A stretch of DNA of 64,000 nt from an uncultured virus (IMG/VR IMGVR_UViG_3300020577_006910) (lineage: Duplodnaviria; Heunggongvirae; Uroviricota; Caudoviricetes): the IMG/VR virus record IMGVR_UViG_3300020577_006910, one strand, 5' to 3'. Positions 4,712 through 64,000 of this stretch are shown piece by piece (position 1 is the first letter of the stretch; every line of letters begins with the position of its first letter). Below the pieces are notes generated by a model, which was not told where the DNA came from, did no database searches, and saw nothing but the letters and a program-made list of their open reading frames with translations. The position numbers were made by a program, and so were the translations under genes.

Positions 4712-4837
4712 GAGGCATCCTATGATCCAGCTTGAAAGCCGAAGATAAGCAAAGAGAGAAACAGTGCTCCAAGTGCAATGCACACGATGTACCAAGCTTT
4801 TTTAGTGCAATCTTTACGATGTTTTGGAGTGTAGTCT

Positions 4838-5593: not shown

Positions 5594-5612
5594 ACAGGCT
5601 CCTTTAACCTAA

Positions 5613-6068: not shown

Positions 6069-6069
6069 A

Positions 6070-34269: not shown

Positions 34270-35170
34270 TGTTATTTTCCTTAAAAACTAAAAAACCCAA
34301 TTTTTTACACTTTTCAATAAATTCAAGCTGTTCACGCTTGTTGTCTAAAATATCGAAAATATCTTTTTCATTAATACTTTTACCATTAGCTAGCGAAAGT
34401 AGTTTGATTTCTATAGCAGATAAAACTATTGATGAGTTAACGTACTCGTCAAACGCCTCAATTACAGTAGGTACAAACGGTTTAATTAAATCATATATAG
34501 CTTGCGCATACACACGAATTTCGTGCTGTGCGTGAGGCGATAATCTTAATTTTAAGAAATGTAGTAAATTATGTAAATCCATTTTCCAGTATTTTTCTGT
34601 GTAAATATTAACAGGCAATACTGTCCTAGCTAATTCTCTGGCTAGATTTTTTTCTAGGTATTTAGTATACATAGAATAAGAGTTTTCACAGAAAGCCTTA
34701 AGTTCACTAGAGAAGGATAGAGCCGTATGAAGCTCTACGGGCGTATCGCCGCCTTGTTTATTAGTCAAGCTTTGCTGTCGCACGTCATCGCCTTTTGGTA
34801 TATAAAACTCATCTTTTAATACCGAATAACGTGCACTTTGCTCATTCATTGAGCAAGTACGGTGACGAACCATTTGACGTTCTACAAATATAGGTAAGCG
34901 TATATGGAACTTGAATTCAACCATCTCAAATGGAGAGGTATGTTTATTTCTAAGTAAATAGCGTATCAAAGTAGCATCTTCGCTTAATTTTTTAGTGCCG
35001 TCACCGTAACTAACCCTTGCAGCCTGACATATTGCATATTCAGGTAAGCGTCCTGGCGGACATATGCGAGGCATGAGATCGACCAAACGAACAAAGCCAT
35101 GGTCTAGAACATTTACAACAGGTTCTTTATCTTTGTAGACTTCTGTAATAATGTCTAAATTATTCTGCAT
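34262..35170 (-). CDS. thyX: FAD-dependent thymidylate synthase
   Basis: VLDHGFVRLVD, AARVSY, HTSPFEMV, RQMVRHR, NEQSARY, RELAR, NLLHFLKLR, HAQHEIR. Confidence 0.96.
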   Translation of the reverse strand: MQNNLDIITEVYKDKEPVVNVLDHGFVRLVDLMPRICPPGRLPEYAICQAARVSYGDGTKKLSEDATLIRYLLRNKHTSPFEMVEFKFHIRLPIFVERQMVRHRTCSMNEQSARYSVLKDEFYIPKGDDVRQQSLTNKQGGDTPVELHTALSFSSELKAFCENSYSMYTKYLEKNLARELARTVLPVNIYTEKYWKMDLHNLLHFLKLRLSPHAQHEIRVYAQAIYDLIKPFVPTVIEAFDEYVNSSIVLSAIEIKLLSLANGKSINEKDIFDILDNKREQLEFIEKCKKLGFLVFKENNNG

Positions 35171-44563: not shown

Positions 44564-44605
44564 GAAGCTAAAACTAGCTTTTGCTAAAGATCTCTATGTT
44601 GCGAC

Positions 44606-47002
44606 ACCGAAGACAACGGCCTTGGCCGATGTGCGCCAAGACTCCAGCAATTTATCTTTTTTACGAAGCACATTTAATTCTTCAACTGTAAAATCTGATA
44701 GATATTTATCTTTATATTTAAACTCACCCATCATCTTACGCATCATATACGTATGAAGATCTGTACTTTGTAATGTATGTATGAACTTCATATCATTTGA
44801 TACGTAACCCAGCGTCCACAGTTCTGCTTGATTCCAATCGGCTTCGAGTAGAACCATGCCAGGATCAGCCACTAACACTGATTTTGCTAGCTTATAGCGT
44901 GAATCTAAGACATTGTCTTTAGTAAATATTTTAATTAATTCAGCTTCTTGTTTCTTAGGCCAGTTTTGAAGCTGTGGGCTTGTAGCATAGCGACCTGTTT
45001 CAAGGGTAGTTCTAAAAGATGTTCTAAAGCGACCATCGGCGCTTAGATTACCCCCGACACCGCCTTCATATACGCATTCACCTGTTTCTGGATTATGCGT
45101 ATAGGGTGTAAATAGATTTTTAACTAACTGATTTACTACTTTATATTTATGTAAAGTGCTGACGATGGGGCTTTCGTTAACCAGAATACCTAGCGTTTCA
45201 GCGTCAACTGCGGCAGCTGTTACTTGTGTCATATTAGCTGCTTCTACATCTTCCCATGGTAAACTACCAGCTTTACCGCCAGTGGATTTAACCGGAGTCA
45301 GTTTTAATAAATTAGCATCTGGTGGTGCTTTACGCCCCTTCTTATTAAATTTACTAAACAGGACCTCTTGACAGTGTTGAGGGGAATCCGGATTAAACCC
45401 TTCTTCTATAACATCTACTGTCTTTTCTTTACCACGTACAATCTTAGTTTGCTGAACTGTACGGGTTTTCCAATTAACCATTTCTTGTAATTGGTTAAGT
45501 AATTCTTTGGATTTATTTACAAATAAATCTGACAGATCTCTAAGTCTATGTTGATCACATAACAGACCTGTCTCTTCCATTTCTAAAATAGCTTCATTTA
45601 GCGGATGATTAACATTGTAATAAAGTTTATATATATGTTCGTTTGTACTGAGCTCTTTACTTAACAGTAAAAAAACACGATAAGTAACAATAGCGTCCAT
45701 GGCACCGTATGGAATTAGTATATCATCCGGAACTGTGCCATAACCTAATAGTTCCTTTTGTTCTTCACTGATTTTATTTTCAGCAAACCAGTCACGCAGA
45801 GGTTTGTCGTATCGTTGACAATTGAGCATTCTAAAAGCAACAAGTTCTAACTGTTTCTCAAGTGTCTCGTTACCGGGTACTAGATGATACGCTATCATTG
45901 TGTCGAAACCACCCGACACAAATAAAGGCATTAGGTCTAATCCAAAACGACGTAAGATCTTAATGTCGCCTCTAATGTTGTGACCTATCACTTTGTAACT
46001 ATTGGCGTTAAATAGCTTTGTAAGCAGTTGTACAAACGTTTTAAAGTTTTCCGGAGAACCTAATTCTGTGGGTATTAAACCGGCTTTATTAAGATGAAAA
46101 ACAACGCAATCATCTGGAGACCAGGCCAACTGAAAAGTGCGTAATGTGTGACCAGCTCCCCACTCAAGGTCAACTGACATGTACGCATTTTTAATACTAT
46201 CTGTAAACCAATCAACAAAAACAGTTAAATCTGCCAATGTGTCAATTACAATTGGTTTAATGTTTATATGAGCCTGACTGGCAGCTACTTTTTCTTCTTC
46301 ACTGTTAGCTGCCTTAAGTACAGATATAAAGTAATTTATATCTAAATTAAAATCATTTAAAGACTCGGGCGCTTTTAGCACTTCTTCGGGTGAAGTACAT
46401 ACAACGCCAATAGTGCCGTCAGGCATTACCAGTGTAGAACCTCTACAGTCTTTAAACGCTACTTTATGTTTATGTTTATCGTATAAGCGTAAAAAAGCTT
46501 TCATTGCCTCTGCGCCTAACAATAGTACATATTTTGGTTTTACTTTTTCAAATATTTGTTTCAGTAAAAACTGACCTTGCGCAATATTAGAATCTTTTTT
46601 TGTAGCTAAGTGTTTAGGTGGAGTATAGGGGCAAGCACCTGCTACCACCCATCTATTGCAATCAATTTGTTTTTCTTCAAAGGCGTTGCGAACCAGGTTA
46701 CCTTTACGAGAACATCCGTAACGATTGTCACGGGTTTCGGCAGGATCTGGATAACGAGTAAGAATTAAAACATCTGATCTGTATGCGCCAATTACGCCGT
46801 CTAATCGTGTAGGGGGTATAAAGCGCACTGATAACCCACTACCGTCATCCAGAGAAACATCTACTGGATTTGTTAAAAATAATTCAGTTGTCTCTTCCAA
46901 AGACTGCGCGTAAGTTTTTGCAGCTTGGTACACCAGTTGAGACGGGTCCAAGCCTGCCTTCTGTAAATAATCTACCAATTCCTGCTTTATCTGCTGACTC
47001 AT
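44606..47002 (-). CDS. polA: DNA polymerase family A, exon 1 (UDG-like domain + 3'-5' exonuclease + polymerase); spliced product ~984 aa
   Basis: VKPKYVLLLGAEA (UDG-like); VDLE, GHNIRGD, FDTM, YGAMDA (exo); MEETG, FNPDSP, ETGRY..PQLQNWP, EADWNQAEL (motif A), DLH, RTSAKAVVFG (motif B). Confidence 0.94.
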
Positions 47003-48152
47003 ATATATATTTCCAAACTATATTATGCGGTAAATCACCAGGATCTTTGTCATCAGGTAAATCTACAGCAACTACGCGATTACCGAATAACGTACGTAAC
47101 TTATTCAACTGAGAATACGTAGATTCTTTTGCATCGCCGTCAAATAACAAAAAACAAGCACCGTTGAAATTTATCCAGTGGTCTAATAGTTTAGTTTGAT
47201 TTGTCGTTAATTTTTTATTAGAAACAGCTACAGCTGGTCCGGCGGCATCCGATTCCTGCGGATTACCTACACGCCAAACATCCGCAGGTCCTTCTGTGAT
47301 AATGACATAAGGGTAATGCTTAGCTTGATTGTAATTGTAAAGATTATCGCCTATCTTAGAACCTGGTGCGGTATACCACTTAACTAATCTAATCGGAGCT
47401 AAATCAGTATTACACATGGAACATTTAACTGATTTAGCGTCATCAGAGTGTATCGTCTGTCCGCACATTACATTAGCGCATAAATGTAAACCAGTACAAT
47501 CCCCGCTACCTGCATATGTTACGTATCTACCCTGCCAAGCGTAAAGACCTGTGCTGTTGTACATCGGGACAATAATACGACTAGAACCTGGGGTTGTTCC
47601 GTTACCCTCGTACCAACGTAAATCAAACGCATTTGCTACTTTATGGGGATCGTGTCCTCTACTTAACAAATAAGCACATGCTCGATGATGCAGAGGTAAA
47701 CTAGCAACGTCAACTATGCCTACAGGTAATTCTATTTTTTTAATTGCGCCCTGTATTATATTGTGTAATTTAGGTTTATTAGTCGTGTTAAGCATTACAC
47801 TTATTGTTGATAAGCTGTTTATCACGTACTCAATAAACTCTGAATCCTGTTGACAATCTTCGTTAAAACATTTGATTAAATGTTTATTTTTAGTTTTGGT
47901 ATCAGCGTCATATTCATTAAACATATGACTAATATATAAACGATGTCGCGTATCTCCACACCACGGACAACAGACTTGATAGGTCTCACCCCATTCAGTT
48001 ATTTGAAACTTTTTACGTGCCGGATTAGACGGGTCTGGTATGGAATGTCCGCTCATCTTAACATTCGCATTAGTTACTTTAATGCGATTACCGCCAAATA
48101 AACCTTTGTCTATCGCTTTTAATAAACGATTATATAAATCATCATTGAGCAT
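46884..48152 (-). CDS. DNA primase (Zn-finger + TOPRIM)
   Basis: CPWCGD..RLY..CFNEDC, YLLSRG, RIIVP..WQGR, ITEGPADV, LFDGDA, DPGD; 3' end overlaps the polA start. Confidence 0.9.
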   Translation of the reverse strand: MLNDDLYNRLLKAIDKGLFGGNRIKVTNANVKMSGHSIPDPSNPARKKFQITEWGETYQVCCPWCGDTRHRLYISHMFNEYDADTKTKNKHLIKCFNEDCQQDSEFIEYVINSLSTISVMLNTTNKPKLHNIIQGAIKKIELPVGIVDVASLPLHHRACAYLLSRGHDPHKVANAFDLRWYEGNGTTPGSSRIIVPMYNSTGLYAWQGRYVTYAGSGDCTGLHLCANVMCGQTIHSDDAKSVKCSMCNTDLAPIRLVKWYTAPGSKIGDNLYNYNQAKHYPYVIITEGPADVWRVGNPQESDAAGPAVAVSNKKLTTNQTKLLDHWINFNGACFLLFDGDAKESTYSQLNKLRTLFGNRVVAVDLPDDKDPGDLPHNIVWKYIYESADKAGIGRLFTEGRLGPVSTGVPSCKNLRAVFGRDN

Positions 48153-49644
48153 TTAGCGCTCCTGCCTGTTTTCGCAAACCAGCGGAGATCTCATTAATTC
48201 GGTCTAATGGATTCTTTGCTTTTGGTAGTCCTTGTAATTTATTTACATCCAACCTGTTACCCATAGCACCTACTACATCATCAACTATTTCAAATTTACA
48301 GACATCACCTAGGTTACGTACTCGAATATCTGAGGCCAATCCGCGATTCTTATCAGTGTATATACGAGCTAAACCTGTCTTAATGTCTGTTTTTGTCATC
48401 AATAAACAAGTATCCATCAGAGCAGCAAATTGTTTAAATTCAGAAGCATCGTAAACTGTAGCTTTACCTTTGCCTTTAATATTGCCGCCTGTACCGTTTA
48501 ATTGATGCGTAATTATAAATTCACACTTATGTTTATCAGCAATTAATTGACGTGCTTGGCCGCACATTTCTCTGTAAACAGAATACATGTTTTCTTTTAA
48601 GTTCAGATTATGTGCGTTACAGTATTTTAATACAGCAAAACCTAACCAATCTAAGATAACCAAACGAGGTTTAATTCCAGCATCTTCCGCTCTACATAGA
48701 ATACTGTCCAACTCCAACATTCCGTTGATACCCTCTGTAGGAGTCGTCATGTCTTTTACATGCAAATATTCATTATAAGAAGCTGTAGCCCTCAATTTTT
48801 CTTTTATATCAGCGGGTAGATCTTTTGGTTTTGTGTCAGATAGTATCTTCGATGAAATACCTGAAGCACAGCTCCAAATACGCGGACGTAATTTAGTTTC
48901 AAACGGTAGTTCGTATTGAAAAAAGAATACGTGCTCACGTTGTTTTGCTGTATTTACCGCGACATCAATAGACAACATAGTCTTGCCGCCACCATAGGGG
49001 GCAAGAATTCCGCATAGATGTTGGGCACGCAAGCCGCCATTTGTAAGGCGATCAAATACGTGACAACCAGATGGTATAGTGCTAACGGATGAATTAATTG
49101 CCGATGCTTCATCAAAAACATCTTCATCAAATATTTTATGATCTTTTGATACAGATATACGCGTGGCTGAGTAACTGTTAATTACACCGCTAATAAATTT
49201 AGATATATCTAAACTATTTGCATCAGATGGTACTGCTGTGCTTGCTAAGACAACACGATGGTCTAAAAAGCGTTGTATGATGTTAGATACCGCCGAAGGT
49301 ACTAACATATTATCAGTCACGTCTTTAAAAACCCAAGTCATTAACTCGATTATCTTATCGACTGATTCTGCGTACTCAGGTTTTTCTTTCAGTTTTTTAC
49401 TTACCTCTGAAATTACGAATGGTTCAGACGGTAATACCTTGTGTTCCCTGTAGAACTCCCTAACGACCGACCATATAACATGATGCGGAATCTCGTTAGG
49501 TCTATTAAACAAATCCGGTTCTAAGGTATAAAATGCAGACTGAATTACAATGTCAGAACGTAGTAAATGTAAAATAATTAAATCCAACTCCTCAGGAGTT
49601 ACCACCTGGGCCGAAGTATTTTGGAATAATTGCTTTGAACTCAT
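48142..49644 (-). CDS. DnaB-like replicative helicase
   Basis: FDRLTNGGL, APYGGGKT, FQYEL, VILDW, THQLN, KNRG. Confidence 0.88.
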   Translation of the reverse strand: MSSKQLFQNTSAQVVTPEELDLIILHLLRSDIVIQSAFYTLEPDLFNRPNEIPHHVIWSVVREFYREHKVLPSEPFVISEVSKKLKEKPEYAESVDKIIELMTWVFKDVTDNMLVPSAVSNIIQRFLDHRVVLASTAVPSDANSLDISKFISGVINSYSATRISVSKDHKIFDEDVFDEASAINSSVSTIPSGCHVFDRLTNGGLRAQHLCGILAPYGGGKTMLSIDVAVNTAKQREHVFFFQYELPFETKLRPRIWSCASGISSKILSDTKPKDLPADIKEKLRATASYNEYLHVKDMTTPTEGINGMLELDSILCRAEDAGIKPRLVILDWLGFAVLKYCNAHNLNLKENMYSVYREMCGQARQLIADKHKCEFIITHQLNGTGGNIKGKGKATVYDASEFKQFAALMDTCLLMTKTDIKTGLARIYTDKNRGLASDIRVRNLGDVCKFEIVDDVVGAMGNRLDVNKLQGLPKAKNPLDRINEISAGLRKQAGALNAQ

Positions 49645-53335: not shown

Positions 53336-54142
53336 CTATACAGTTGCAGTTAAACTTAAAGTATCTGTCATACGCTCTAGTAAAGTTACTTTTTTATAAG
53401 CAGATAATTTAGACGGAGCACCATGTGCAACTATGGCAACGGTGGCTGCGTTTTCTAGCTTACCCCATTTAGTGCCAGTGCACGCTCTACATTGAGAACA
53501 GGTCAAACGATAACCAGCTAATTCAGATGCAGGGCATATAAATTCTTTATCAAATAAAACATCATCATTGATAAACGTTCTAAACGTACGCCAACCCATT
53601 TCTCTGGCAAGCAGATACTCGTCTTTTGAATCTACGCTAGCCATCAAGATGTTTCTAAATAAAACATCGCACTTTTTCCAGGTATGCGTGTAACCAGTGT
53701 ACCCCGCTGATTTTTTAGTCAGCGTATCCCACAAGTCATATGGAACAGCTGTTGGCTCTCCGTAGCTGCCGACACGTAAATACCTGCCATCTAACCAAGA
53801 AAAATCAACTAATTTTGAATATTTACCTTTTTTAAATGTTTTGTATATATTGAGCGGAGCTTGCCCTATGTTTACATAACAACTTCTATCTTTACCGTTA
53901 CCGGTGCCACGATGTCTGCAGTCTCCACACACTGAAGCATCTTGTTCAGTCTTGACTGCTTCAACTGGATTTACGTCTGATCGTAATATCCATGTTTGAA
54001 TCATAGGTCCGGTTTTAGTATTAGAGGTTTTAAGCGTAGCTATACAGACAATTGGTGCGCCGTCTAATTGAGATGGTCCTTCATACAGGATCACTCCACC
54101 AGAGGCGTGATTATTGTTTAATACATGAAGACTTAAAGACAT
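53336..54142 (-). CDS. conserved Cys-rich phage protein (possibly Fe-S binding)
   Basis: YEGPSQLDG, NTKTG, CGDCRHR..CYV, RVGSYGEP, GYTH, MASVD, CPA..CSQCRAC, AHG. Confidence 0.7.
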   Translation of the reverse strand: MSLSLHVLNNNHASGGVILYEGPSQLDGAPIVCIATLKTSNTKTGPMIQTWILRSDVNPVEAVKTEQDASVCGDCRHRGTGNGKDRSCYVNIGQAPLNIYKTFKKGKYSKLVDFSWLDGRYLRVGSYGEPTAVPYDLWDTLTKKSAGYTGYTHTWKKCDVLFRNILMASVDSKDEYLLAREMGWRTFRTFINDDVLFDKEFICPASELAGYRLTCSQCRACTGTKWGKLENAATVAIVAHGAPSKLSAYKKVTLLERMTDTLSLTATV

Positions 54143-54179: not shown

Positions 54180-56330
54180 TTACAAAGAAATTACATAAGG
54201 AGCATATGTTTTTAATTTATCTTCATGCGTGACTACGAGCATCTGAATATTTTTAGATGTAGTGTATGTCTGTAAATTTGTAAATAGGTCTGCTACTCTA
54301 TCAAGATGATCGCTGTCCAATCCGTAGGTAGGCTCATCCAGCGCTATAAAACCTACAGACTGATTAAACAAACTACTTACTGTAAGTAAAAACGATAGAG
54401 CTAAGCAGCAACGCTGTCCACCACTTAACTGTTCAGTTATGGCTGATTGATTATTTGAAAATTTAACTTGAATAGTAGAATCAGCTAATAATTCAACTGT
54501 AAACGGTACGTCGAGTTGAGATAGCAGCTGATTCCAGCTGGCATTAAGTCTAGAAAAATATACGCTTGCTAAAGCTTGAGGAAGTTTGGTAGGGTGTAAA
54601 GCTTGCTTGATTTGCTCCAAACAACCGCAATAACTTTCAATTACATTGCGTTGTTTAAGTGTTTTATGTAGCGTCTCTAATCTTGCATTAATTGACGGTA
54701 ATAGTTTTTGCTCTAAAGCATTTAACTCTGCCTCTGCAAGACTTAATTGTTTTATCTCAGCCCTACAAACAGCCAACTCTGTTTCTAACTTAATTAAGTT
54801 AGTTTGACTTAGTTTTGTTTCTTTTTGAATTAAGCCAGATAAATGTGTTGTAATGTGTTCTATAGCTGCGTTTGTAGCAGATAGTTCTTTGTCTAAAGTA
54901 TTTAAATTATTTAATAGCTCATCTACATTTTGCAGTTGTTTATCTAAATAAGCAAGTTTGTCTTGAATAACAGCTATTTCATTATTTAATTGCGTTTCGT
55001 CTAAATCCTTAAACGCAGCTAATTGCGCATCTAGTCCATCTAGCTTTTGCTTTAAACCGATCTCTTGCGTCAGCAGACTTACAAGCTTTGTGTAGTATTC
55101 GTAGATTTTTGTCGTGTTATTGACAGCTTGCGTATAAGTGTTTACGGCAAAAGTTGCCTTTTCTACTAAGTCAGATAAGTGTAAATGTTCTGTACCTTTA
55201 ATTACTGTATCTGTACCGCAAGTTGGACAGACGCCATCTTTAAAGCTAGTCAGTTTTGCCTGCTCTATAGATAAATTTAAAGCAGCTTCTTGTTTTACTT
55301 TTAGCGCTTCAGCTTGTTTAGCGGTAGCTTCGCTGTACGTTATGTACGAACCGTGCACAGCTACAATTTCAGAATGCTTAGCAGTACACTCGGTAACAGC
55401 TTCTGAGCGTCTAGTTAGCAGTTCTTTTTGCTTAGCTATTTGAGTTAATTTTTGTCTACACGTAGATAAAGCTACGGACTCAGCTATTTTTTCCTTAGCC
55501 AAGTGTTCTCTAGTTAAACAGTTTGATACGTTTTCAGCTACAGCAGATTTTTGCAAAGTTAGGTTGTTTAATTTAGTCTGCAGAGTTTCAGCTGTTTTAA
55601 GTGACGCAGATAGCCCTGTTGCCGGATTATTTAGATCGGCAGCTATACTGTGGCATGTAATTACTATTTGTTGCAGACTTGTCTCAGTGGAGCGTAATAC
55701 ATCTAAAGAATGCCCCTTAAGTTCAGCGTTTAGTACATCTACGCGTTTAACTGCGTCAGAGTGTTCAGCTGTTAACTTCGAGAGATCCTCTAGTACCATA
55801 CCATTTAACTTACCGGTATAAAAATTTAATTCTGTTGTAGCTAAAGCATATATAGCTTGAAATCTATCGGTACCAAGTAATTTATGTAACATAACATTAC
55901 GCTCACTTGGGCGAGCGTCTAATATAGCTGTAGTATCACCTTGTTTTACAAATACAAAATTATCGGATAAATTTTTTGCGGCCCCAAGTAAATCATTTAT
56001 ACAAGCGTCTATGTCACTTAACTTAGAATAAATCTGACCATCATAGTTCAATAAAGCTTTTGAACTATGTAATTGTCGGGATATGTGCCCTTTTTTACCG
56101 TTGGCCTCGAAGGTCAACTCTACCCTACCCTCATCCGCATCCCATTTTAAAGCCTCTAATTTTTTAACGTTTGGAGTTACGCCGGTCAATACAAACTGTA
56201 AAGCTTTTAATATATTAGATTTACCGGTACCGTTAGGACCTTGTATAACACACAACCCATTATCAGGAAAAGCGATTACTAAATCAGAATGAATGCCGTA
56301 ATTAACTATGTGTAGCTTTTGAAGTTTCAT
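54180..56330 (-). CDS. sbcC: SbcC/Rad50-like (gp46-like) ATPase
   Basis: GPNGTGKS, VKQG, coiled coil with CPTCG zinc hook, LSGGQ, LDEPT, VVTHE. Confidence 0.94.
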   Translation of the reverse strand: MKLQKLHIVNYGIHSDLVIAFPDNGLCVIQGPNGTGKSNILKALQFVLTGVTPNVKKLEALKWDADEGRVELTFEANGKKGHISRQLHSSKALLNYDGQIYSKLSDIDACINDLLGAAKNLSDNFVFVKQGDTTAILDARPSERNVMLHKLLGTDRFQAIYALATTELNFYTGKLNGMVLEDLSKLTAEHSDAVKRVDVLNAELKGHSLDVLRSTETSLQQIVITCHSIAADLNNPATGLSASLKTAETLQTKLNNLTLQKSAVAENVSNCLTREHLAKEKIAESVALSTCRQKLTQIAKQKELLTRRSEAVTECTAKHSEIVAVHGSYITYSEATAKQAEALKVKQEAALNLSIEQAKLTSFKDGVCPTCGTDTVIKGTEHLHLSDLVEKATFAVNTYTQAVNNTTKIYEYYTKLVSLLTQEIGLKQKLDGLDAQLAAFKDLDETQLNNEIAVIQDKLAYLDKQLQNVDELLNNLNTLDKELSATNAAIEHITTHLSGLIQKETKLSQTNLIKLETELAVCRAEIKQLSLAEAELNALEQKLLPSINARLETLHKTLKQRNVIESYCGCLEQIKQALHPTKLPQALASVYFSRLNASWNQLLSQLDVPFTVELLADSTIQVKFSNNQSAITEQLSGGQRCCLALSFLLTVSSLFNQSVGFIALDEPTYGLDSDHLDRVADLFTNLQTYTTSKNIQMLVVTHEDKLKTYAPYVISL

Positions 56331-56332: not shown

Positions 56333-57445
56333 TTACAATCCAATAGCTTTTTTATATTGTTCTAGTTGTAATTTGGGATCGTTGTTCATCATGGCTTTTA
56401 AAAAAGCTGCAGCTGCTGGATCTTTTACATAGGAATTAACCAACGTGTCGAGGCTTAAGTCTAATTTGAGTTCGGGTGTAACGTCAGGTGTTTCTGCGTC
56501 AAAAAATGAACTAAACACATGTGCTTTGTTATCTATATAAGTTTTTAATCTATCTAGAGCTTTATTAATAGAACTGGATATCTTTACACTTACAACAGGT
56601 GTAACAATATCAGGATATTTTTGTTTTTTTATCTCATCATCTATAGTAGGTGTGTTTAATTTTGCGTCTAAGTCGCTAAACATCGCCACTAGGTCTGCTT
56701 CAGTACACAAAGTATAATAATAAAAATCTCGTGTAACTAGTTTATGTTGAGTTAAACTGATCTCACCATTTACTTCATTTACAAGGTATACATATTTTTT
56801 AGATGCCTCTTTTAGAGCTTGTACGCTTGTGCTACCGGGATACGCAAATAGCGTATTACCGTGACGTTCTTGTATATTTACGTGGTAATCACCAAGAAGC
56901 ACTGCGGGTATTTCTTTGGGTACCCAGTTAGCTTTCATATTTACCATTGCGTCAAATTTACAAAAAACATCTAAAAGTTGGTGACCTACCACTATTGTGC
57001 TAGATGGTTTGCTTAAATGAGGCAACAACTCTTTTGCGTAAAACTGCTCTAACTCTGACGGATTACCGCAAAAAGGTACGCCATACAAATAGAAATTATT
57101 TAAACGCGTTTCTTTATTCTGTATATCCAACCCACCTATTACTTTAATCCAATCGTGTTCTTTACTCTTATCATGATTACCAGGTATACCGTAAAAGTTT
57201 AAACCATTTTTATTTAGAGCACTAACGCCTTGTTTAGCTACGTATACGCTCTCCGCATCAGGGCGAGCTGAATCAAATAAATCCCCGCCATCAACATAAT
57301 TACAATTGTGTTCTACGCATAGTTGAATAGTTTGGTCAAACGATGCATACGCATCACCAAATATAGACGCCCGAGCCGTCCATACGTGCTTTCGTAAATG
57401 TTGATCAGCTCCAAAAATAAATAATAGATTTGGTTGTTTTGGCAT
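56333..57445 (-). CDS. sbcD: SbcD/Mre11-like (gp47-like) nuclease
   Basis: ADQHL, GGDLFD, GNHD, GHQ, LGDYH, YPGS. Confidence 0.93.
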   Translation of the reverse strand: MPKQPNLLFIFGADQHLRKHVWTARASIFGDAYASFDQTIQLCVEHNCNYVDGGDLFDSARPDAESVYVAKQGVSALNKNGLNFYGIPGNHDKSKEHDWIKVIGGLDIQNKETRLNNFYLYGVPFCGNPSELEQFYAKELLPHLSKPSSTIVVGHQLLDVFCKFDAMVNMKANWVPKEIPAVLLGDYHVNIQERHGNTLFAYPGSTSVQALKEASKKYVYLVNEVNGEISLTQHKLVTRDFYYYTLCTEADLVAMFSDLDAKLNTPTIDDEIKKQKYPDIVTPVVSVKISSSINKALDRLKTYIDNKAHVFSSFFDAETPDVTPELKLDLSLDTLVNSYVKDPAAAAFLKAMMNNDPKLQLEQYKKAIGL

Positions 57446-57491
57446 AAAGCAAAAGAACGAATTAACGTTACTTTAACTGTCAAACAGGCGA

Positions 57492-57791
57492 TCAGGGAGA
57501 TAAGCTTGCAAAAATACGTTTCACATCTTCACGGGATAAAATAATCACGCCGTAAATCGTAAAGCTACTATTAAAAGGGTGCGTAGCTTTATTTATATTA
57601 TGCATTAAAAATTTTATCATGTATGGTTTATAGTTAGTGTCAAATAATACATGAGACATATACACGCACTTAATATGGTAGGCAATAGAGGCACTAAAGC
57701 TAAAACCAAACGTTAACATAAACAAACTAGAGCTATTAATATTCATACTACCTGTTCTTAAGTAGTTAAACTTTTTAAAGCAGTAAATCAT
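57492..57791 (-). CDS. YxF-array ORF (MIYCF)
   Basis: ORF track; GGAG upstream. Confidence 0.6.
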   Translation of the reverse strand: MIYCFKKFNYLRTGSMNINSSSLFMLTFGFSFSASIAYHIKCVYMSHVLFDTNYKPYMIKFLMHNINKATHPFNSSFTIYGVIILSREDVKRIFASLSP

Positions 57792-58113
57792 TTATACGTA
57801 GCTCCGCATCTGCGTGCTCGAACTGCTTCGTAGACATAGAATTAACAAAATAAATTAAAGCGGAAGTTTTTGGTTTACGCCGTAGATTTAAAACTACGTG
57901 ACCATGGTTATTAAATACGTAATATTCGTTATCACTATGGTGCCGCATAGTACGTGGTTTGGTGCTATCTACAAATATAAAACAAAAACAAGTGCTACGC
58001 CAGAAGTAGCCTTTCATGTAGTTAACGCAATAAAACATAAAAAACGTATAATAAAAAGCAGTCTTTCCTGAATAATTGTGGCATTTAAAGACGTAACCAA
58101 AAGGTGCTTTCAT
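57775..58113 (-). CDS. YxF-array ORF (MKAPFGYVF)
   Basis: ORF track; ATGA coupling. Confidence 0.6.
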   Translation of the reverse strand: MKAPFGYVFKCHNYSGKTAFYYTFFMFYCVNYMKGYFWRSTCFCFIFVDSTKPRTMRHHSDNEYYVFNNHGHVVLNLRRKPKTSALIYFVNSMSTKQFEHADAELRINDLLL

Positions 58114-58577
58114 GTTTTTTGTAAAGAATAAATACCGTATAAGTAATATTCATATGAGACCATGTTAAGTTGAAACTCTCTATTTTTTCTAGAGTATCTC
58201 GTTCGTTGTTTATGTGTGCGATCAAGTACGGTAAGCGCCAAGAACACCTCCTCTTCTGGTACATATGCATGTTTATGTAAATTACGCAACGTCAATATAG
58301 ACAGATTGAGACTAGTGTAAATTAAATAAGTAGAACGTCCCCACATAGTGGAATGTATCGCGTGATCACCGTATTTTTTTGCTTTAATTGAAACAGTTAA
58401 AAAATCCGAAGGATCGGTTTTGTCTTTATAAAACATATAAATAAGACCGTGCAATAAATTAAATATTTTTAACTTTTGATTCGTTAACGCGGGTGTAGTA
58501 TTAGGGCGTAGTTTATTCGCTAAATCGTTGTACTCGTCAGATAAAAAGGTGTAGTTTTGACGTGCCTTAGTTTTCAT
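58110..58577 (-). CDS. YxF-array ORF (MKTKARQNYTF)
   Basis: ORF track; overlaps upstream stop. Confidence 0.6.
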   Translation of the reverse strand: MKTKARQNYTFLSDEYNDLANKLRPNTTPALTNQKLKIFNLLHGLIYMFYKDKTDPSDFLTVSIKAKKYGDHAIHSTMWGRSTYLIYTSLNLSILTLRNLHKHAYVPEEEVFLALTVLDRTHKQRTRYSRKNREFQLNMVSYEYYLYGIYSLQKT

Positions 58578-58869
58578 ATATAGGGAAACCTGTCGGACAA
58601 TACACCACGTTTATGCTAATTATTTGATCAAAAAACGTACATTTAACACTGTAGCTAAACACCTCCGTGTGTTTACTAATAAAAAATTGAGGTCTAAAAA
58701 CATAAAAACAATAACAACGATAAAAATGAAAAGGTCTACGTTCAACTCCAAATGCAGTAATAGGATAGTTTCCCAGTATCTGCTTTGTTGCAGAAGTAAA
58801 AAATGTTTGTTCTTTATCAGATAAACAGAATAGATGTTTACTTAGTTTAAAAACATAGTTAATTGTCAT
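58567..58869 (-). CDS. YxF-array ORF (MTINYVF)
   Basis: ORF track; ATGA coupling. Confidence 0.6.
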   Translation of the reverse strand: MTINYVFKLSKHLFCLSDKEQTFFTSATKQILGNYPITAFGVERRPFHFYRCYCFYVFRPQFFISKHTEVFSYSVKCTFFDQIISINVVYCPTGFPIYEN

Positions 58870-59180
58870 TTTTTTAGCGTTACTTTCAATTTACCGTGAT
58901 TGCGTAGCTTTTTTTGTTTTTTTACGTATATATAGTTATTGTTGTTAATGGGCACTGGAGTAACTGCAAAATAGGAAACCATCAAATTTCTGCCAGGACG
59001 TACACTGAACCGTCTTGTTGAGCGTCCGCCTATATGTACAAAGCAGTACATCTTGCGTGAATAAGGTGGTACATATTTAGAATCAGCGCAGCAAACAGTA
59101 AACCAGCTAGAACGACGATGTATTCTAGTAAAATATAAAAAGCGTGAATTATCTGGTTTGAAAGAATAGTTAGTTTTTAC
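58866..59180 (-). CDS. YxF-array ORF, inferred GTA start (xKTNYSF)
   Basis: Frame of 58866..59051 is open 43 codons further up to GAGGT-gcgct-GTA, which overlaps the upstream TAA. Confidence 0.45.
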   Translation of the reverse strand, partial: VKTNYSFKPDNSRFLYFTRIHRRSSWFTVCCADSKYVPPYSRKMYCFVHIGGRSTRRFSVRPGRNLMVSYFAVTPVPINNNNYIYVKKQKKLRNHGKLKVTLKK

Positions 59181-59500
59181 AGCGCACCTCGGAATACACG
59201 ACGCAGGTTAAAAACTTTTTGTTTGGAATCGGAATACACGACGCAGGTTAAAAACTTTTTGTTTGGAATCGTGATGTCCATATACACCGCGCACTCAAAA
59301 ACTTGAACGTAAAAATCTACGAACATATAAACACAAGAATATTCAGTACGAAAACCAATCGGCAAATTAGTGCAATTAATATGAATGTCATCACTTATGC
59401 ACGAAGACATGTACATTAATGACAAATAAATAAACGAATTTGCGCGTAAAATGCTGTCTAGTTTAGGGTTAAGTTTAAATCTGCTAAAGCTGTACAGCAT
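59177..59500 (-). CDS. YxF-array ORF (MLYSF), C-terminus altered by 40-bp duplication
   Basis: Internal ATG at 59500 lies just after the upstream stop. Confidence 0.55.
   Translation of the reverse strand: MLYSFSRFKLNPKLDSILRANSFIYLSLMYMSSCISDDIHINCTNLPIGFRTEYSCVYMFVDFYVQVFECAVYMDITIPNKKFLTCVVYSDSKQKVFNLRRVFRGAL
59191..59270. repeat. exact 40-bp tandem duplication
   Basis: GGAATACACGACGCAGGTTAAAAACTTTTTGTTTGGAATC x2. Confidence 0.97.
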
Positions 59501-59502
59501 AG

Positions 59503-59928
59503 TTAACACACAGGATACTGTAATAGCGGTGGACATTCTACGCTACCAATATTTATGGGCATAGTTGATTTATCAAGAGGTAAACTTACCCAACTGTACG
59601 CCGTAATATCTATAACAAGTTTGTGTGCGTATGGTGTATACGTAAACTTATATTTTGTGTTATTGCGTAACCTAAACACGATAAACTCAACACGATCTCT
59701 ACCGTAAGTTGCCTGTAACATAAAAGCAACGCTTATTACCACAAAGTAATCAGCACGTTTTCCAGTTTTTTTCTGTAAATATTTTAACGTATACCAAGCT
59801 ACACAATAAGGATTATAGACGTTCACTTGACGTAAAGGGAACAGCTTATCAGCAGTTGTTGTTTTTAAAACACTAAACGATCTGTAGTTAAATAAATAGC
59901 GCACTTTTGAATTGTTAGCTATCAGCAT
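59503..59928 (-). CDS. YxF-array ORF (MLIANNSKVRYLF)
   Basis: ORF track; overlaps upstream stop. Confidence 0.6.
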   Translation of the reverse strand: MLIANNSKVRYLFNYRSFSVLKTTTADKLFPLRQVNVYNPYCVAWYTLKYLQKKTGKRADYFVVISVAFMLQATYGRDRVEFIVFRLRNNTKYKFTYTPYAHKLVIDITAYSWVSLPLDKSTMPINIGSVECPPLLQYPVC

Positions 59929-60226
59929 CGGTTTTAATTAAAACGTTTTTCTGAGGTTTTAAATACCAGCTAGATAACAACATAAGACCGTAAAGTTGTG
60001 GTTTTGTATACGTGCAGCTGTAACATTTATTATCGACAGCTTTGATTGTAAATATACAAAAATTAAATAACATATAAATTGCAGGGCAATTAGTATAAAC
60101 GTTTATAGCCAATTTGCTTAAATCACGTTTATTAAAAACTTTTTGTGATAATGCATATAATGAAGATGAAAAATTTACAACATCAACAGGCGAGTAATAA
60201 GTAAATCCAAAAGCGTATCGGACTAT
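59915..60226 (-). CDS. YxF-array ORF, inferred ATA start (xVRYAF)
   Basis: AGGAG-7 nt-ATA in frame with 59915..60112. Confidence 0.5.
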   Translation of the reverse strand: MVRYAFGFTYYSPVDVVNFSSSLYALSQKVFNKRDLSKLAINVYTNCPAIYMLFNFCIFTIKAVDNKCYSCTYTKPQLYGLMLLSSWYLKPQKNVLIKTDADS

Positions 60227-60270
60227 ACTGTGACTCCTGTTCCTTAGTAAACACAGCTACTACAAGCAAA

Positions 60271-60633
60271 CTAACAAAAGTCCGGCAAAAAATAATGACT
60301 AAACCTATAAGAAGCAACACCTACGATAGATATAAACCCGGTTACGTTATCAAGATCAATACAAAAAGACCACGTGTTTTTTCCTATTTTTAAATTATCT
60401 AAAGGCGTGTGTGGAGTTTTTAGCGGCAAGCTTTTATATATGTACATACGCGAATTAAGTAGACTGATGTTAATAGCCGTATAATGCCTATTACAAGTCC
60501 ACCCAATAAAAGGCGGTCTTACTTTAGGGTTTACATTAAACATGCGAAGCCAGCGTATATTACCTATTGAGACCGCACAATTTGGATCTTCAAGCTCTTT
60601 AAACACATAACTAGATCTTTTGATGAGTTGCAT
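60271..60633 (-). CDS. YxF-array ORF (MQLIKRSSYVF)
   Basis: ATG 1 nt after the upstream TAA. Confidence 0.6.
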   Translation of the reverse strand: MQLIKRSSYVFKELEDPNCAVSIGNIRWLRMFNVNPKVRPPFIGWTCNRHYTAINISLLNSRMYIYKSLPLKTPHTPLDNLKIGKNTWSFCIDLDNVTGFISIVGVASYRFSHYFLPDFC

Positions 60634-60634
60634 G

Positions 60635-60919
60635 TTATGTGATCCGTAAACTGGTTGACATTGCATTGAAGGCATGAACTGATGTTACTATATTCAAAGA
60701 GCTGTAGTCTAGATTGTAGTTGTTACCGGGGTAAGTGTATACATACAAATAAAAATACAAACAATGACAATGCCAAGCGGTGTAGTTAGCCCCGCCATGC
60801 CCATTAATAACACAATTGTTTGTCCAGCGTACGTAACATTTTATCAAAGGTAGAGAATTGGTGTTATTAAAATAAATGTAATGAGGGCTAAACCCATAAT
60901 AGCTTTTATTAGCTAGCAT
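60635..60919 (-). CDS. YxF-array ORF (MLANKSYYGF)
   Basis: ORF track; overlaps upstream stop. Confidence 0.55.
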   Translation of the reverse strand: MLANKSYYGFSPHYIYFNNTNSLPLIKCYVRWTNNCVINGHGGANYTAWHCHCLYFYLYVYTYPGNNYNLDYSSLNIVTSVHAFNAMSTSLRIT

Positions 60920-61095
60920 AGGCGATATTGATATCGATGATTATACATACGCATACGATCTAGAATGACATCAAGATAGTAATATATTAACCATAAAGGT
61001 TCCCACCTATACCATATATAGCTATACGCTACAGGATCTTTAATAAATGCATGACTAAGACTAAAACAATATTTAGGAAAACTGGAGGTTGTCAT
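60913..61095 (-). CDS. YxF-array ORF (MTTSSFPKYCF)
   Basis: ORF track. Confidence 0.5.
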   Translation of the reverse strand: MTTSSFPKYCFSLSHAFIKDPVAYSYIWYRWEPLWLIYYYLDVILDRMRMYNHRYQYRLC

Positions 61096-61126
61096 TCAAT
61101 GGGCAGCCAAACGTAGCTACTGAACT

Positions 61127-61456
61127 CTAGTCAAGAAACAATCTATTATTGCGGTTTGTTGAAAACTTAATGAAAGTTACAGACTCTCTGTAAGAAATTT
61201 TAACGTAATAACTTTCAAGCGTACATAAGTTTAAAGTCATACACCAATCTGGAAAAGTTGGAGGACTACTGTGATTTACAATATACGAACTACCTATATG
61301 AATCATTAAAGAACTGGGACTATACCAATGGTAAATTCCGTCATACGTTAACCAATCAAAATAAGCACAAAGTAAAAGAAAACAACTTTTTTTAATAGAA
61401 GAGTCGGTGTTGATATATCGTTCTTTATAGGGGAGTGCAAAACAATAGTTAAACAA
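61127..61456 (-). CDS. YxF-array ORF (TTG start, MFNYCF)
   Basis: AAGGA SD. Confidence 0.55.
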   Translation of the reverse strand: MFNYCFALPYKERYINTDSSIKKSCFLLLCAYFDWLTYDGIYHWYSPSSLMIHIGSSYIVNHSSPPTFPDWCMTLNLCTLESYYVKISYRESVTFIKFSTNRNNRLFLD

Positions 61457-61484
61457 GGCATCCTTTCAAACGACTGAAGTTAAC

Positions 61485-61709
61485 TTACATAAAAAACATT
61501 TCTATATTAAAAACAAAATTTGGCATTAATACATAAAAATGTATAAATTCCGCAAAAACTATTATCCACACACCTGTGTAGGCACGACTACTGTTAACGG
61601 TTACAGCAGGAGCATCCCATAGTTTTTTACACGCAAAATTAGCCACTATAACACGATAGTTATATTTACTGTACTCGTTAATCATTGAATTAAAGGTATA
61701 GTTACGCAT
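61485..61709 (-). CDS. YxF-array ORF (MRNYTF)
   Basis: ORF track; overlaps upstream stop. Confidence 0.55.
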   Translation of the reverse strand: MRNYTFNSMINEYSKYNYRVIVANFACKKLWDAPAVTVNSSRAYTGVWIIVFAEFIHFYVLMPNFVFNIEMFFM

Positions 61710-61923
61710 TAGCTATTATGTACAGATGTATATCTGTGTCATAATTAAACTTAGCTAAAAAGCCTAACACAACAGGACTGTTAGACGCATAAACGGTATC
61801 ACCATAAAATTTAGCGTAATTTAAACGTTGTAACACATATAAAAAATGTAACGTAGCATCTAGTCTATTTATATGCGTAAGTACAGATGTAATGCGGTGG
61901 TTAAACAAATAGTTATTCAACAA
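61702..61923 (-). CDS. YxF-array ORF (TTG start, MLNNYLF)
   Basis: GGGAG SD. Confidence 0.55.
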   Translation of the reverse strand: MLNNYLFNHRITSVLTHINRLDATLHFLYVLQRLNYAKFYGDTVYASNSPVVLGFLAKFNYDTDIHLYIIANA

Positions 61924-61938
61924 CAGCTCCCTTGTGCT

Positions 61939-62157
61939 TTACGTAGAAAACCACCAAACATCTGGTTCGTGCGAGCTTGGTTTAAACACAACTAACTTAT
62001 AAACAGATACATAAGGATTAGCAAAAACACGTACATAATTATAGGTAGAAAATCGCGTCAAGTATAGCAACACATTAAACGGATTGTAGTAAGTATAAGC
62101 AAGATTTGCACCTGAAAGAATACGTGTGTACTTTTTGCTAAATTTGTAGGTCGGCAT
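61939..62157 (-). CDS. YxF-array ORF (MPTYKF)
   Basis: ORF track. Confidence 0.55.
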   Translation of the reverse strand: MPTYKFSKKYTRILSGANLAYTYYNPFNVLLYLTRFSTYNYVRVFANPYVSVYKLVVFKPSSHEPDVWWFST

Positions 62158-62165
62158 ACAAAGAG

Positions 62166-62471
62166 TTAGGTAAACAGATCAACGTAATTATTATGATTAA
62201 AACTAGTCATATAAGCTTCCACAGTCCAAAAACTAAAAAAAGGTGACTTAGAGATGTAAGTCCGATCACAGAAAAACCTACCTGTAAATAAGATGCCTGC
62301 GTTACGTACAGTTAAAAATACACAACACCGAAAGTCACAATAAGTCATAATTAAATAAAATGTAGGTGTGTACCACTCAATAGGATAGGTACGCCAAAAA
62401 TCAAAATAATGAAAAGCTCCGAGCTTAGACTTAAATCTGTAATGATTACCGGGAACAGTTTTGACAGACAT
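62166..62471 (-). CDS. YxF-array ORF (MSVKTVPGNHYRF)
   Basis: GAGGA SD. Confidence 0.6.
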   Translation of the reverse strand: MSVKTVPGNHYRFKSKLGAFHYFDFWRTYPIEWYTPTFYLIMTYCDFRCCVFLTVRNAGILFTGRFFCDRTYISKSPFFSFWTVEAYMTSFNHNNYVDLFT

Positions 62472-62503
62472 GTGTCCTCAGGATGGCCACGTTTAACCAA
62501 GCA

Positions 62504-62800
62504 CTAAAAGTATGGATAATGCAAAGATCCACAGTCTAACACATAATCCACGCGACCTGTCACACAATTTAGTACAGCTAAACGCCAGTTATACAATGCG
62601 CTATAGACATTACGGTTAATTTCTATGTAGATCTTCGAATACTCTGAATGAGTAGTTATATTACTGTTATAAAAATCTACCTGTCTGCTGTGCCGTCCTG
62701 TATAACTTAAACAAAAAGCACATTGATTAAAAACAGCTGTATCTTCATATATCGGGGTATATTTTTTATATAAAGGTATAAATGTGTAGATCCGTTTAAT
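62504..62800 (-). CDS. YxF-array ORF missed by the ORF track, inferred ATT start (xKRIYTF, 98 aa)
   Basis: AAGGA-8 nt-ATT, 98 open codons to TAG; no ATG in frame. Confidence 0.55.
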   Translation of the reverse strand: MKRIYTFIPLYKKYTPIYEDTAVFNQCAFCLSYTGRHSRQVDFYNSNITTHSEYSKIYIEINRNVYSALYNWRLAVLNCVTGRVDYVLDCGSLHYPYF

Positions 62801-62857
62801 GGATAACGTCCTTTTTTACATAAAAGTTAAGCATAAGAATCAAAATAGACGCCATGC

Positions 62858-62938
62858 TTAGACCTCGCTAAAGGCAACACGTAAAAACGCCCAAACATTA
62901 ACTTGATAAGAGTACTTAAACTCATAGCTATACCTGAT
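62858..62938 (-). pseudogene. short/truncated YxF-array ORF, inferred ATC start (xRYSYEF, 26 aa)
   Basis: AAGGAG-7 nt-ATC; early TAA. Confidence 0.35.
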
Positions 62939-62998
62939 AGCTAAACTCCTTTGCTGTTAGCTGTTTGCACTAAACGTGAACAATTAACACAAAGTTAT

Positions 62999-63331
62999 TT
63001 AATTAAAATCAATGCAAACACTATGACTAAAAATAATTGTAATAAAGTTTGAATGTTTACTAGCGCGGCTAGAATTAGCACTGGTGCGGCTAATGTCAGT
63101 AATTGATATAGTTACGTAACTTAAAAAATACGGATCTGTGGCGTAAACGTAGTAACAGTGACTTGTGTACGAATAACAAGTTGAATGACTTCTTTTAACA
63201 TAAGTACAAACAGTGTACAAACCAATTAAACGATAGACATAAACTGAATTAAAAATTTTTGGTAAATGCAGTATTGAGTTAACGGGAGTAAAATTAATTA
63301 AATTATTAGAATCAAAATTATACAAAATCAT
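62999..63331 (-). CDS. YxF-array ORF (MILYNF)
   Basis: Internal ATG at 63331 overlaps the end of the upstream ORF. Confidence 0.55.
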   Translation of the reverse strand: MILYNFDSNNLINFTPVNSILHLPKIFNSVYVYRLIGLYTVCTYVKRSHSTCYSYTSHCYYVYATDPYFLSYVTISITDISRTSANSSRASKHSNFITIIFSHSVCIDFN

Positions 63332-63614
63332 GAATCTCGTAATACGAATCTGCGTAATGTGGTTTAAAAATACCATCAGCCGTTTGATTAAAATATTGTC
63401 GGCATGTTAACGTAGCTAACCTATAAGGCTCGTGGTCTAAAAAAAATAATGGAAAACATACAAAGCTCACAAATGACATAGCCTCACTATTCCGCTGATA
63501 GCACAAACAGTACTGATCAGTGTGCGACATAAAACGCCCTCCGGGAAGTGAACAATAGTTAGCTATAAAACAACTAGAATTACCTCTAAAAACATAAGCT
63601 TTGTTAACGCGAAT
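63318..63614 (-). CDS. YxF-array ORF, inferred ATT start (xRVNKAYVF)
   Basis: TAAGGAG-7 nt-ATT in frame with 63318..63530. Confidence 0.55.
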   Translation of the reverse strand: MRVNKAYVFRGNSSCFIANYCSLPGGRFMSHTDQYCLCYQRNSEAMSFVSFVCFPLFFLDHEPYRLATLTCRQYFNQTADGIFKPHYADSYYEIHDFV

Positions 63615-63643
63615 GACGCTTCTCCTTAGCGGGCGTTGTTTAA

Positions 63644-64000
63644 TTAGTTAAAATAGTTACAAAAGTGTTTGCTGCAACGAAGCTTAAATACGTACTCACT
63701 ATAAGGGACGTTAACCGAGCAATATCTACGTTCATTCATGTCTGAAGGCGTACGCGTAACCCAAGTCAAATTAGGTAAAGAACAAAACCTAAAAAAGTTT
63801 ACATTTACATAAAAAAAATATTCAGCCTTACACGAACGATCATCGTGTGTAAACATAGAATAATTTACACGTACGTACAACCGTGAGAAAGCAGATATTT
63901 CAAATCCATAAGATAGACAATAAAGACTAGCTAAAGAATAAGCGCAAAATTGTTTATCTAACGCAGTAACTGATTTAACTGCAGAATACTCATGCACACG
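63644..64000 (-). CDS. array-type ORF, start probably outside the window
   Basis: Same Y/F/C-rich composition; frame open to the window edge. Confidence 0.5.
   Translation of the reverse strand, partial: RVHEYSAVKSVTALDKQFCAYSLASLYCLSYGFEISAFSRLYVRVNYSMFTHDDRSCKAEYFFYVNVNFFRFCSLPNLTWVTRTPSDMNERRYCSVNVPYSEYVFKLRCSKHFCNYFN

Follow-up and report, generated by a model that had tools for sequence, protein, structure and literature searches.

What, if anything, unites a dense row of small phage genes that resemble neither one another nor any known family? This question is raised by the last 6.5 kb of a 64,000-nucleotide (nt) stretch of DNA from an uncultured virus of the Caudoviricetes (IMG/VR record IMGVR_UViG_3300020577_006910); the whole stretch is referred to here as the window, and nearly all of its long open reading frames (ORFs) lie on the minus strand. 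An earlier note on this DNA had pointed to an array of small ORFs at positions 57492-64000 whose products carry a Tyr-x-Phe (Y-x-F) motif close to the N-terminus. The analysis presented here finds this region to be a fast-evolving, hypervariable block of at least 20 small (60-155 amino acids (aa)), basic and aromatic-rich genes without known relatives, and the only feature common to the block is a frame-locked N-terminal Y-x-F that is usually followed by Lys, Ser or Asn.

The minus strand of 57492-64000 contains 19 stop-to-stop frames of 60-166 codons, together with one frame cut by the window edge and one 26-codon mini-frame. These run head to tail, on the same strand as the SbcD/SbcC, helicase, primase and polymerase genes and immediately upstream of them; nine of the 19 junctions overlap, and the remaining gaps are no longer than 60 nt, with the single exception of a gap of 125 nt. 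Are these frames genes? Fifteen frames of at least 100 codons are present on the minus strand and none on the plus strand; first-order Markov simulations (n = 300) averaged 0.37 such frames and never exceeded 4. The ORFs are real, and their head-to-tail, often overlapping arrangement agrees with the earlier description. A codon model trained on 51 other genes of the phage favours the open frame in 19 of 19 cases, with scores per codon of 0.14-0.49 relative to a mean of 0.35 for real genes, and the scores of the array frames are aided by their lack of stops. An antisense shadow of plus-strand genes, or the use of another genetic code, was considered and rejected, as stops make up 8% of each plus-strand frame and no open run there reaches 100 codons. 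No tRNA was found within the array, an Rfam search of 57000-64000 (E up to 1) returned no match, and terminator-like sites within the array number two compared with 4.4 expected.

What the members share lies at their N-termini. All 20 Y-x-F sites listed in the earlier note were recovered on the minus strand, and a 21st, M-YCF at 59048, was added to them; each site is given with its gene below as the coordinates of its Y-x-F codons, such that the higher number is the T of TAY. Counted from the opening of the frame, 18 of the 19 carry Y-x-F in their first 26 codons, compared with a mean of 3.28 and a maximum of 10 frames in 5000 within-protein shuffles, and 19 of the 29 Y-x-F occurrences in the array frames fall in the first 28 residues, a portion that amounts to 532 of 2079 residues. 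Outside the array, Y-x-F occurs in the first 16 residues of only four of 100 minus-strand ORFs (at least 40 aa), just one of which is a plausible gene. By both comparisons, each of which the earlier note had proposed, the enrichment of the motif is far beyond chance. When the most plausible starts are used, the motif lies 2-15 residues past the start of the protein; in 12 of 21 genes Y falls at codon 2-5, whereas in the other nine it falls at codon 7-15. F is followed by Lys, Ser or Asn at 14 of 21 sites, and Y is preceded by Asn or Lys at seven of 21.

Is the signal a property of the protein or of the nucleic acid? One explanation is that a DNA or RNA signal, such as a promoter, a processing site or a recombination site, places the word TAYNNNTTTA near gene starts by chance. 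The base after TTT is A at 16 of 20 sites, compared with 47% after other Phe codons of the array, and Ser at position +3 is encoded by AGY in four of four cases, both of which would fit a nucleotide-level signal. However, of 21 occurrences of TAYNNNTTY within the first 27 codons, 19 are in frame and two are not (binomial P = 8.4e-8 against 1/3); further into these ORFs the word occurs 10 times in frame and 15 times out of it, in line with chance. The motif Tyr is TAT at 12 sites and TAC at eight, the same ratio as for all Tyr codons of the array (118 and 70), such that the earlier claim of an in-frame motif using both Tyr codons holds; the motif Phe is TTT at 19 sites and TTC at one, again as for Phe across the array (147 and 16). 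The middle codon is not constrained, and apart from the A after TTT the flanks hold no conserved base, with a weak bias at just two columns, +19 and +29, between -60 and +45; the distance to the start codon varies. Moreover, sigma-70-like promoters are not enriched in the array (23 compared with 28.3 expected) and no repeated DNA is found at gene junctions, the only strong repeat being one 40-nt duplication. Because of the frame lock, the free Tyr wobble, the free middle codon and the lack of junction repeats, the signal belongs to the reading frame, and a nucleic-acid signal is barely credible. The motif is selected at the level of the protein or of its translation, and not as a DNA word.

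Read in the direction of transcription, with every gene on the minus strand, the array opens with a frame whose 5′ part is truncated by the window edge (63644..64000, 118 codons visible) that has the same odd composition and an N-terminus outside the window; for this reason, the array probably extends past the window. The frame at 63318..63614 would encode 98 aa if it starts at an ATT behind AAGGAG (Y-V-F 63588-63596), and it also contains an in-frame ATG at 63530 with its own GGAGG, the resulting 70-aa form being collection entry P0017. The gene at 62999..63376 (P0016) encodes 125 aa from its first ATG or 110 aa from the ATG at 63331, where the protein begins M-I-L-Y-N-F (Y-N-F 63314-63322). 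The 26-codon mini-frame follows at 62858..62938, with AAGGAG and an ATC start (Y-E-F 62918-62926); it is probably a decayed gene start, and it sits in a stretch that cannot be aligned in the variant X6 (joint 62818-62944). Next come 62504..62800, encoding 98 aa from an ATT behind AAGGA (Y-T-F 62780-62788), and 62166..62471 (P0015), encoding 101 aa from an ATG behind GAGGA (Y-R-F 62433-62441), whose orthologue P0018 is 71% identical and keeps the frame, with Y-V-F as its motif. Three genes of similar length are then found at 61939..62157 (72 aa from an ATG, beginning M-P-T-Y-K-F, motif 62140-62148), 61702..61923 (73 aa from a TTG behind GGGAG, Y-L-F 61903-61911) and 61485..61709 (P0013; 74 aa from an ATG that overlaps the upstream stop, beginning M-R-N-Y-T-F, motif 61692-61700), the last of which begins M-R-I-Y-T-F in the variant P0014.

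Further along, 61127..61456 encodes 109 aa from a TTG behind AAGGA (Y-C-F 61439-61447), 60913..61095 encodes 60 aa from an ATG (Y-C-F 61063-61071) and 60635..60919 encodes 94 aa from an ATG that overlaps the upstream stop (Y-G-F 60890-60898). The gene at 60271..60675 (P0010, P0011, P0012) encodes 134 aa from its first ATG or 120 aa from the ATG at 60633, where it begins M-Q-L-I-K-R-S-S-Y-V-F (motif 60601-60609), and 119 of 134 residues are identical in P0012. The frame at 59915..60226 would encode 103 aa if it starts at an ATA behind AAGGAACAGGAG (Y-A-F 60209-60217), and that at 59503..59928 (P0008) encodes 141 aa from an ATG overlapping the upstream gene (Y-L-F 59890-59898), with 133 of 141 residues identical in the variant P0009. 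The 119-aa gene at 59177..59536 (P0007; ATG, Y-S-F 59486-59494) has its 3′ end shifted by the 40-nt duplication. The 113-codon open frame at 58866..59207 carries Y-S-F at 59160-59168 without a start codon, and M-Y-C-F from an ATG at 59051, which would yield 61 aa. The gene at 58567..58869 (P0005) encodes 100 aa from an ATGA overlap with the upstream stop and begins M-T-I-N-Y-V-F (motif 58849-58857), its variant P0006 being identical at 92 of 100 residues. The largest and best-conserved member, of 155 aa, is found at 58110..58577 (N-Y-T-F, motif 58545-58553) and is identical to P0001 at 154 of 155 residues. The array closes with 57775..58113 (P0003, P0004; 112 aa, ATGA overlap, G-Y-V-F, motif 58087-58095) and a last gene of 99 aa at 57492..57791, which begins M-I-Y-C-F (motif 57777-57785).

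How are these genes started? The earlier note had cautioned that several starts were chosen by eye, and the caution was warranted, given that four motif frames have at best ATT, ATC or ATA before the motif, two start at TTG and the frame with the motif at 59168 has no plausible start at all. For the four frames at 63614, 62938, 62800 and 60226, the only plausible starts are ATT, ATC, ATT and ATA, respectively, each 6-8 nt behind a strong Shine-Dalgarno site; these are either unusual start codons in use or recently decayed ATGs. Many members with an ATG have no Shine-Dalgarno site, and such a site is present at 22 of 51 genes in the rest of the window.

These features bear on a second explanation, in which Y-x-F followed by Lys, Ser or Asn acts as a translational ramp or through the nascent chain, easing the first elongation steps of near-random ORFs with no binding partner involved. 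In its favour, the motif is start-proximal, frame-locked, independent of the remaining protein and tolerant of synonymous codons; such a device would also suit an array in which many members have no Shine-Dalgarno site and six start on ATT, ATC, ATA or TTG. In E. coli reporter libraries, K|N-Y|I at codons 3-5 is the top-enriched pattern for high yield and K-F-S is a high-expressing triplet (PMC6920384). The array pattern recalls these motifs in the Asn or Lys that precedes Y at seven sites, in the Lys, Ser or Asn that follows F at 14, and in the 12 members with Y at codon 2-5. However, the published effect is bound to codons 3-5, a position from which the nine members with Y at codon 7-15 depart, and a general preference for certain residues does not predict that all 21 sites have Y at i and F at i+2. 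The E. coli ramp is a statistical preference at fixed codons, whereas the Y and F of the array are invariant and lie anywhere from codon 2 to codon 15 (PMC6920384). In addition, the other 51 genes of this phage do without the motif, one genuine gene excepted. We regard a purely translational role as rather unlikely, though it is a rival to be taken seriously.

Beyond the motif, the array proteins are alike in composition. They contain 9.0% Tyr, 7.8% Phe, 3.2% Cys, 1.8% Glu and 3.4% Asp, compared with 4.3, 4.1, 1.6, 4.9 and 6.2%, respectively, in the phage's other genes, in keeping with the earlier description of the array as rich in Y, F and C and poor in D and E. Individual proteins range from 13 to 31% in aromatics plus Cys and from 0 to 8% in Asp plus Glu, and they are basic, with isoelectric points of 7.0-11.2. 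Membrane proteins were considered as a candidate class and rejected, as the Kyte-Doolittle score of a 19-residue window exceeds 1.6 in only one of 20.

Do the proteins belong to any family? None of 20 array frames matched Pfam at its cut-off (two weak matches, E 0.017 and 0.43) or PHROGs at E < 0.001 (three weak matches, 0.009-0.09). A word-indexed search of 5.8 billion clustered proteins with three queries returned only the queries themselves, near-identical variants and one 71% orthologue, and HMMER found no relative of the 155-aa ORF besides its own variant among 1.84 billion representatives. Within the scope of these searches, the earlier statement that no family could be recognised is supported. 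An array of precursors of ribosomally synthesized and post-translationally modified peptides does not match either, the shared part being 3-4 residues with no leader of some length, and Pfam identified no radical-SAM, YcaO, lanthipeptide or similar domain among the 51 window proteins.

Could the members nonetheless be one ancient paralogue family, the product of tandem duplications that diverged past recognition, with Y-x-F as the last remnant of a shared fold, for example its first β-strand? The earlier note had offered a greatly expanded paralogue family as one reading, and the tandem same-strand layout, the similar sizes (60-155 aa, most 70-140), the composition that is uniform and unusual in all members and the fast evolution of the block between close variants would all agree with it. 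The motif is also predicted to lie in an N-terminal strand in both AlphaFold models obtained, which lends the idea weak support at predicted local distance difference test scores (pLDDT) below 50. However, the similarity between members does not exceed that of shuffled sequences: the best E value in an all-against-all BLASTP is 0.044, compared with 0.016-0.37 in 10 shuffled sets. Motif-anchored alignments reveal no conserved column past Y, F and position +3 (mean score -0.871; null -0.905, standard deviation 0.027), the lengths span 2.5-fold, and there is no confident fold for comparison. An expanded paralogue family is thus not demonstrable, and we consider common descent of the whole array unlikely.

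How quickly the block changes is apparent from variant contigs. The full frame is retained in each of seven orthologue pairs drawn from them, and identical residues fill 743 of 819 aligned columns; identity spans 154/155 to 72/101, and the sole indel, two codons long, is in the 101-aa pair, the 71% pair in which W, Y, F and C positions are conserved. The N-terminal Y and F are unchanged in seven of seven pairs, whereas the residues at -3, -1 and x vary. The 155-aa member differs at one of 155 residues, and the variant contig piece covering 58036-59188 has 36 base differences in 1153. In the variant X6, divergence is ~3% in core genes and 3%, 4%, 8% and 11% in the array moving upstream, and several array stretches fail to align at 80%. 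A perfect 40-nt tandem duplication in two copies (59189-59268), which is not a multiple of three and shifts the end of one gene, is polymorphic, since X6 is without one copy (the joint 59188-59229 skips 40). It was also observed that the minus, coding strand becomes increasingly T-rich toward the window end over 58000-64000: the plus-strand AT skew per 2 kb rises from 0.04 to 0.11 to 0.18, and the divergence of X6 climbs in the same way.

What, then, is the motif for? We tentatively favour a reading that we judge to be possible, though somewhat short of probable, in which Y-x-F is a short recognition peptide for a common putative partner, carried by otherwise unrelated proteins. The rationale for this statement is the pattern itself, an invariant aromatic pair two residues apart on proteins that are unrelated. 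The motif would most likely form a short β-strand that presents its two aromatic side chains on one face, and through it all array proteins would be handled by one putative partner, be it a protein or a machine, of the phage or of the host; delivery, the timing of breakdown and assembly are possible purposes of such handling. The array is probably co-transcribed with the replication genes as a set of early or accessory genes, as suggested by its location on the same strand, the end of its last gene 46 nt upstream of the SbcD-like gene and the finding of no terminator-like site between the two.

A number of observations weigh against a block of functional proteins with a recognition peptide. 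G occupies the first codon position in 18% of array codons, compared with 31% in other genes, and arithmetic from base composition shows the amino-acid composition to be close to that of a random translation of a T-rich strand. No confident fold was predicted: for the 155-aa ORF, the ESM Atlas model has a pLDDT of 0.42 (and no structural neighbour at a template-modelling score of 0.5), the AlphaFold model of the 141-aa ORF from its single sequence has a pLDDT of 45.6, and that of the 101-aa ORF with its one orthologue has a pLDDT of 36.7. The constancy of Y and F in the orthologue pairs (0 changes in 14 residues, ~1.3 expected) is not significant alone. Seven of the 21 motif-bearing frames have no ATG, one of them being startless, and these missing ATGs, the startless frame and the frame-shifting duplication indicate that part of the array may be decaying. 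As for expression, the label early reflects position and strand only, and although contigs with an array stretch occur in wastewater RNA libraries (three runs), these may be phage DNA and are uninformative on transcription.

The substitution counts are a further point on this side. Over 60271-60919, which covers two genes, nine synonymous and 14 non-synonymous differences from X6 give an omega of ~0.62 (P = 0.19 versus 1), and the gene at 60635..60919 has five synonymous and seven non-synonymous single-nucleotide polymorphisms among those listed. The core genes in the same comparison have 13 synonymous and two non-synonymous differences (Fisher P = 0.006 against the two array genes), per-gene figures that draw on 40 of 557 base differences and cover two array genes. 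With omega not significantly below 1 in these two genes, some members may be nearly unconstrained, and constraint across the array is uneven.

Taken to its extreme, this evidence would describe functionless frames, that is, filler or leader DNA kept translatable so that ribosomes or polymerases run through to the downstream genes. The near-random composition, an omega that does not differ from 1 in the two genes compared, the degenerate starts, the frame-shifting duplication and the lack of a fold or of homologues would all be expected of such filler. However, it leaves unexplained the Y-x-F at every start, the single change in the 155-aa member and the conserved W, Y, F and C positions of the 71% pair, and 6.5 kb is costly to a phage. 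For the array as a whole, functionless filler is very improbable.

If Y-x-F is a recognition peptide, is there a known system that works in this way? A close analogue is found among the internal proteins of T4 and its relatives, which carry a capsid-targeting sequence (CTS). In T4, the prohead protease cleaves the CTS off after a Glu. What the diverse T-even internal proteins have in common is only the targeting sequence; as in the array, a short N-terminal peptide is the sole common part of small, basic, diverse and varying proteins (PMC3012670). By analogy, as the earlier note had suggested, the array might be a library of capsid cargo in which Y-x-F is the targeting peptide through which basic proteins enter the prohead, to be injected together with the DNA; small, basic and otherwise unrelated proteins that carry a short N-terminal tag and are encoded in a hypervariable block would fit such a library. 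However, the two differ in several respects. The array places at least 20 proteins in one row, and T4 has a handful; a set of at least 20 cargo species would lack precedent. The array motif is just Y-x-F-(K/S/N), with no conserved acidic or other cleavage position in the 24 residues past it. The array genes sit beside replication genes and not head genes, and the window revealed no recognisable head, scaffold or prohead-protease gene. Loading into the capsid is, in our estimation, improbable.

A broader version of the recognition-peptide reading would regard the block as a library of at least 20 unrelated, near-random and basic proteins that are handled by one machine through a minimal Y-x-F tag. 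Its members might enter the capsid and be injected as changeable anti-defence or takeover effectors, or might be handed over to a protease as a built-in timer, and new members could arise from scratch by gaining the tag. We hold this version to be distinctly unlikely. No precedent for an N-terminal three-residue tag on at least 20 near-random proteins of a phage without relatives was found in the literature searched, a limited library; if true, the array would represent a tagging system for the evolution of new phage effectors, with a motif and a scale that have not been described before.

As a gene neighbourhood, the block is less unusual. T4-type phages have hyperplastic regions with PeSL cassettes, in which small, fast-changing genes without relatives are found (PMC2839356, PMC4122927), a cyanophage carries an 'ORFanage' block (PMC4503421), and the host-takeover module of SPO1 comprises 26 genes (10.1101/569657). 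The T4-type, SPO1 and cyanophage blocks are, like the array, dense, same-strand, relative-less and subject to quick turnover. PeSL cassettes are defined by repeated early promoter and stem-loop DNA between genes, none of which is present in the array, and unlike the array, the members of hyperplastic and ORFanage blocks are not known to share an N-terminal peptide. Arrays of the same kind in related phages, which the earlier note had suggested looking for, were not found in phage records, IMG/VR or JGI metagenome contigs: blastn of the array against 50,697 phage records returned no relatives, and neither did searches of IMG/VR and JGI metagenome contigs with the 155-aa ORF and the SbcD-like protein.

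The array is set in a window that represents the replication and nucleotide-metabolism region of a large phage. Pfam assigns an SbcD-like protein to 56333-57445 and an SbcC-like protein to 54180-56330 (both minus strand); the two genes lie directly downstream of the array and open the replication module. A DnaB-like helicase is encoded at 48142-49644, a family A polymerase with a uracil-DNA-glycosylase-like domain at 44594-47002 (minus strand), the thymidylate synthase ThyX at 34262-35170, a ribonucleotide reductase at 11497-14592, and dCTP deaminase-like, kinase and RuvC proteins by several genes; a PHROGs search of the window added a primase and a UvsX-like recombinase. In the polymerase, the uracil-DNA-glycosylase-superfamily domain is N-terminal (residues 73-213), and the first 119 nt of its gene overlap the 3′ end of 46884-48152, an upstream gene whose product matches a primase.

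The phage itself appears very isolated in sequence. The phage polymerases matched by its polymerase are at most 25% identical, and the SbcD-like protein matched only itself among 5.8 billion clustered proteins. Public runs that contain near-identical DNA are labelled wastewater, riverine and activated sludge. One gene departs from this isolation: 53336-54142 (minus strand) matches phrog_2554 (E 7.8e-70), a family label without a function, and its protein has homologues of 40-49% identity in 152 phage records of unrelated groups, with Ruegeria, Klebsiella, Mycobacterium, Gordonia and Microcystis phages among the host labels. By sequence comparison, this is a widely exchanged gene within an otherwise isolated genome, and because its homologues are spread across many unrelated phage groups, the gene is no guide to the relatives of the phage.

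At the far end of the window, 2284-3897 (minus strand) encodes a Ro60/TROVE protein (Pfam TROVE, E 5e-51; Ro60 vWA, E 5e-31). The Ro60 proteins of cells act together with Y RNAs. An Rfam search (E up to 1) over 1-6200 found no Y RNA, its single match being a tRNA-Gln at 5612-5684; adjoining the Ro60-like gene is an ORF-poor gap of 480 nt at 1805-2283. A long hairpin at 662-754, just 3′ of the ORF 755-1804, matches microRNA-precursor models on both strands with scores under gathering; it probably represents a strong terminator or some other stem-loop.

In large phages, small genes that lack relatives occur in blocks, and what they do and where they came from is mostly obscure. If Y-x-F is a docking tag, it would provide a handle on the role of a whole block of such dark-matter genes, through the partner that it binds and through the packaging, breakdown or localisation of the proteins that carry it. 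If it is instead a translational device, it would show how a phage expresses new ORFs that are poorly adapted, which bears on the birth of viral genes. Under either reading, the motif is short enough for simple reporter-fusion tests.

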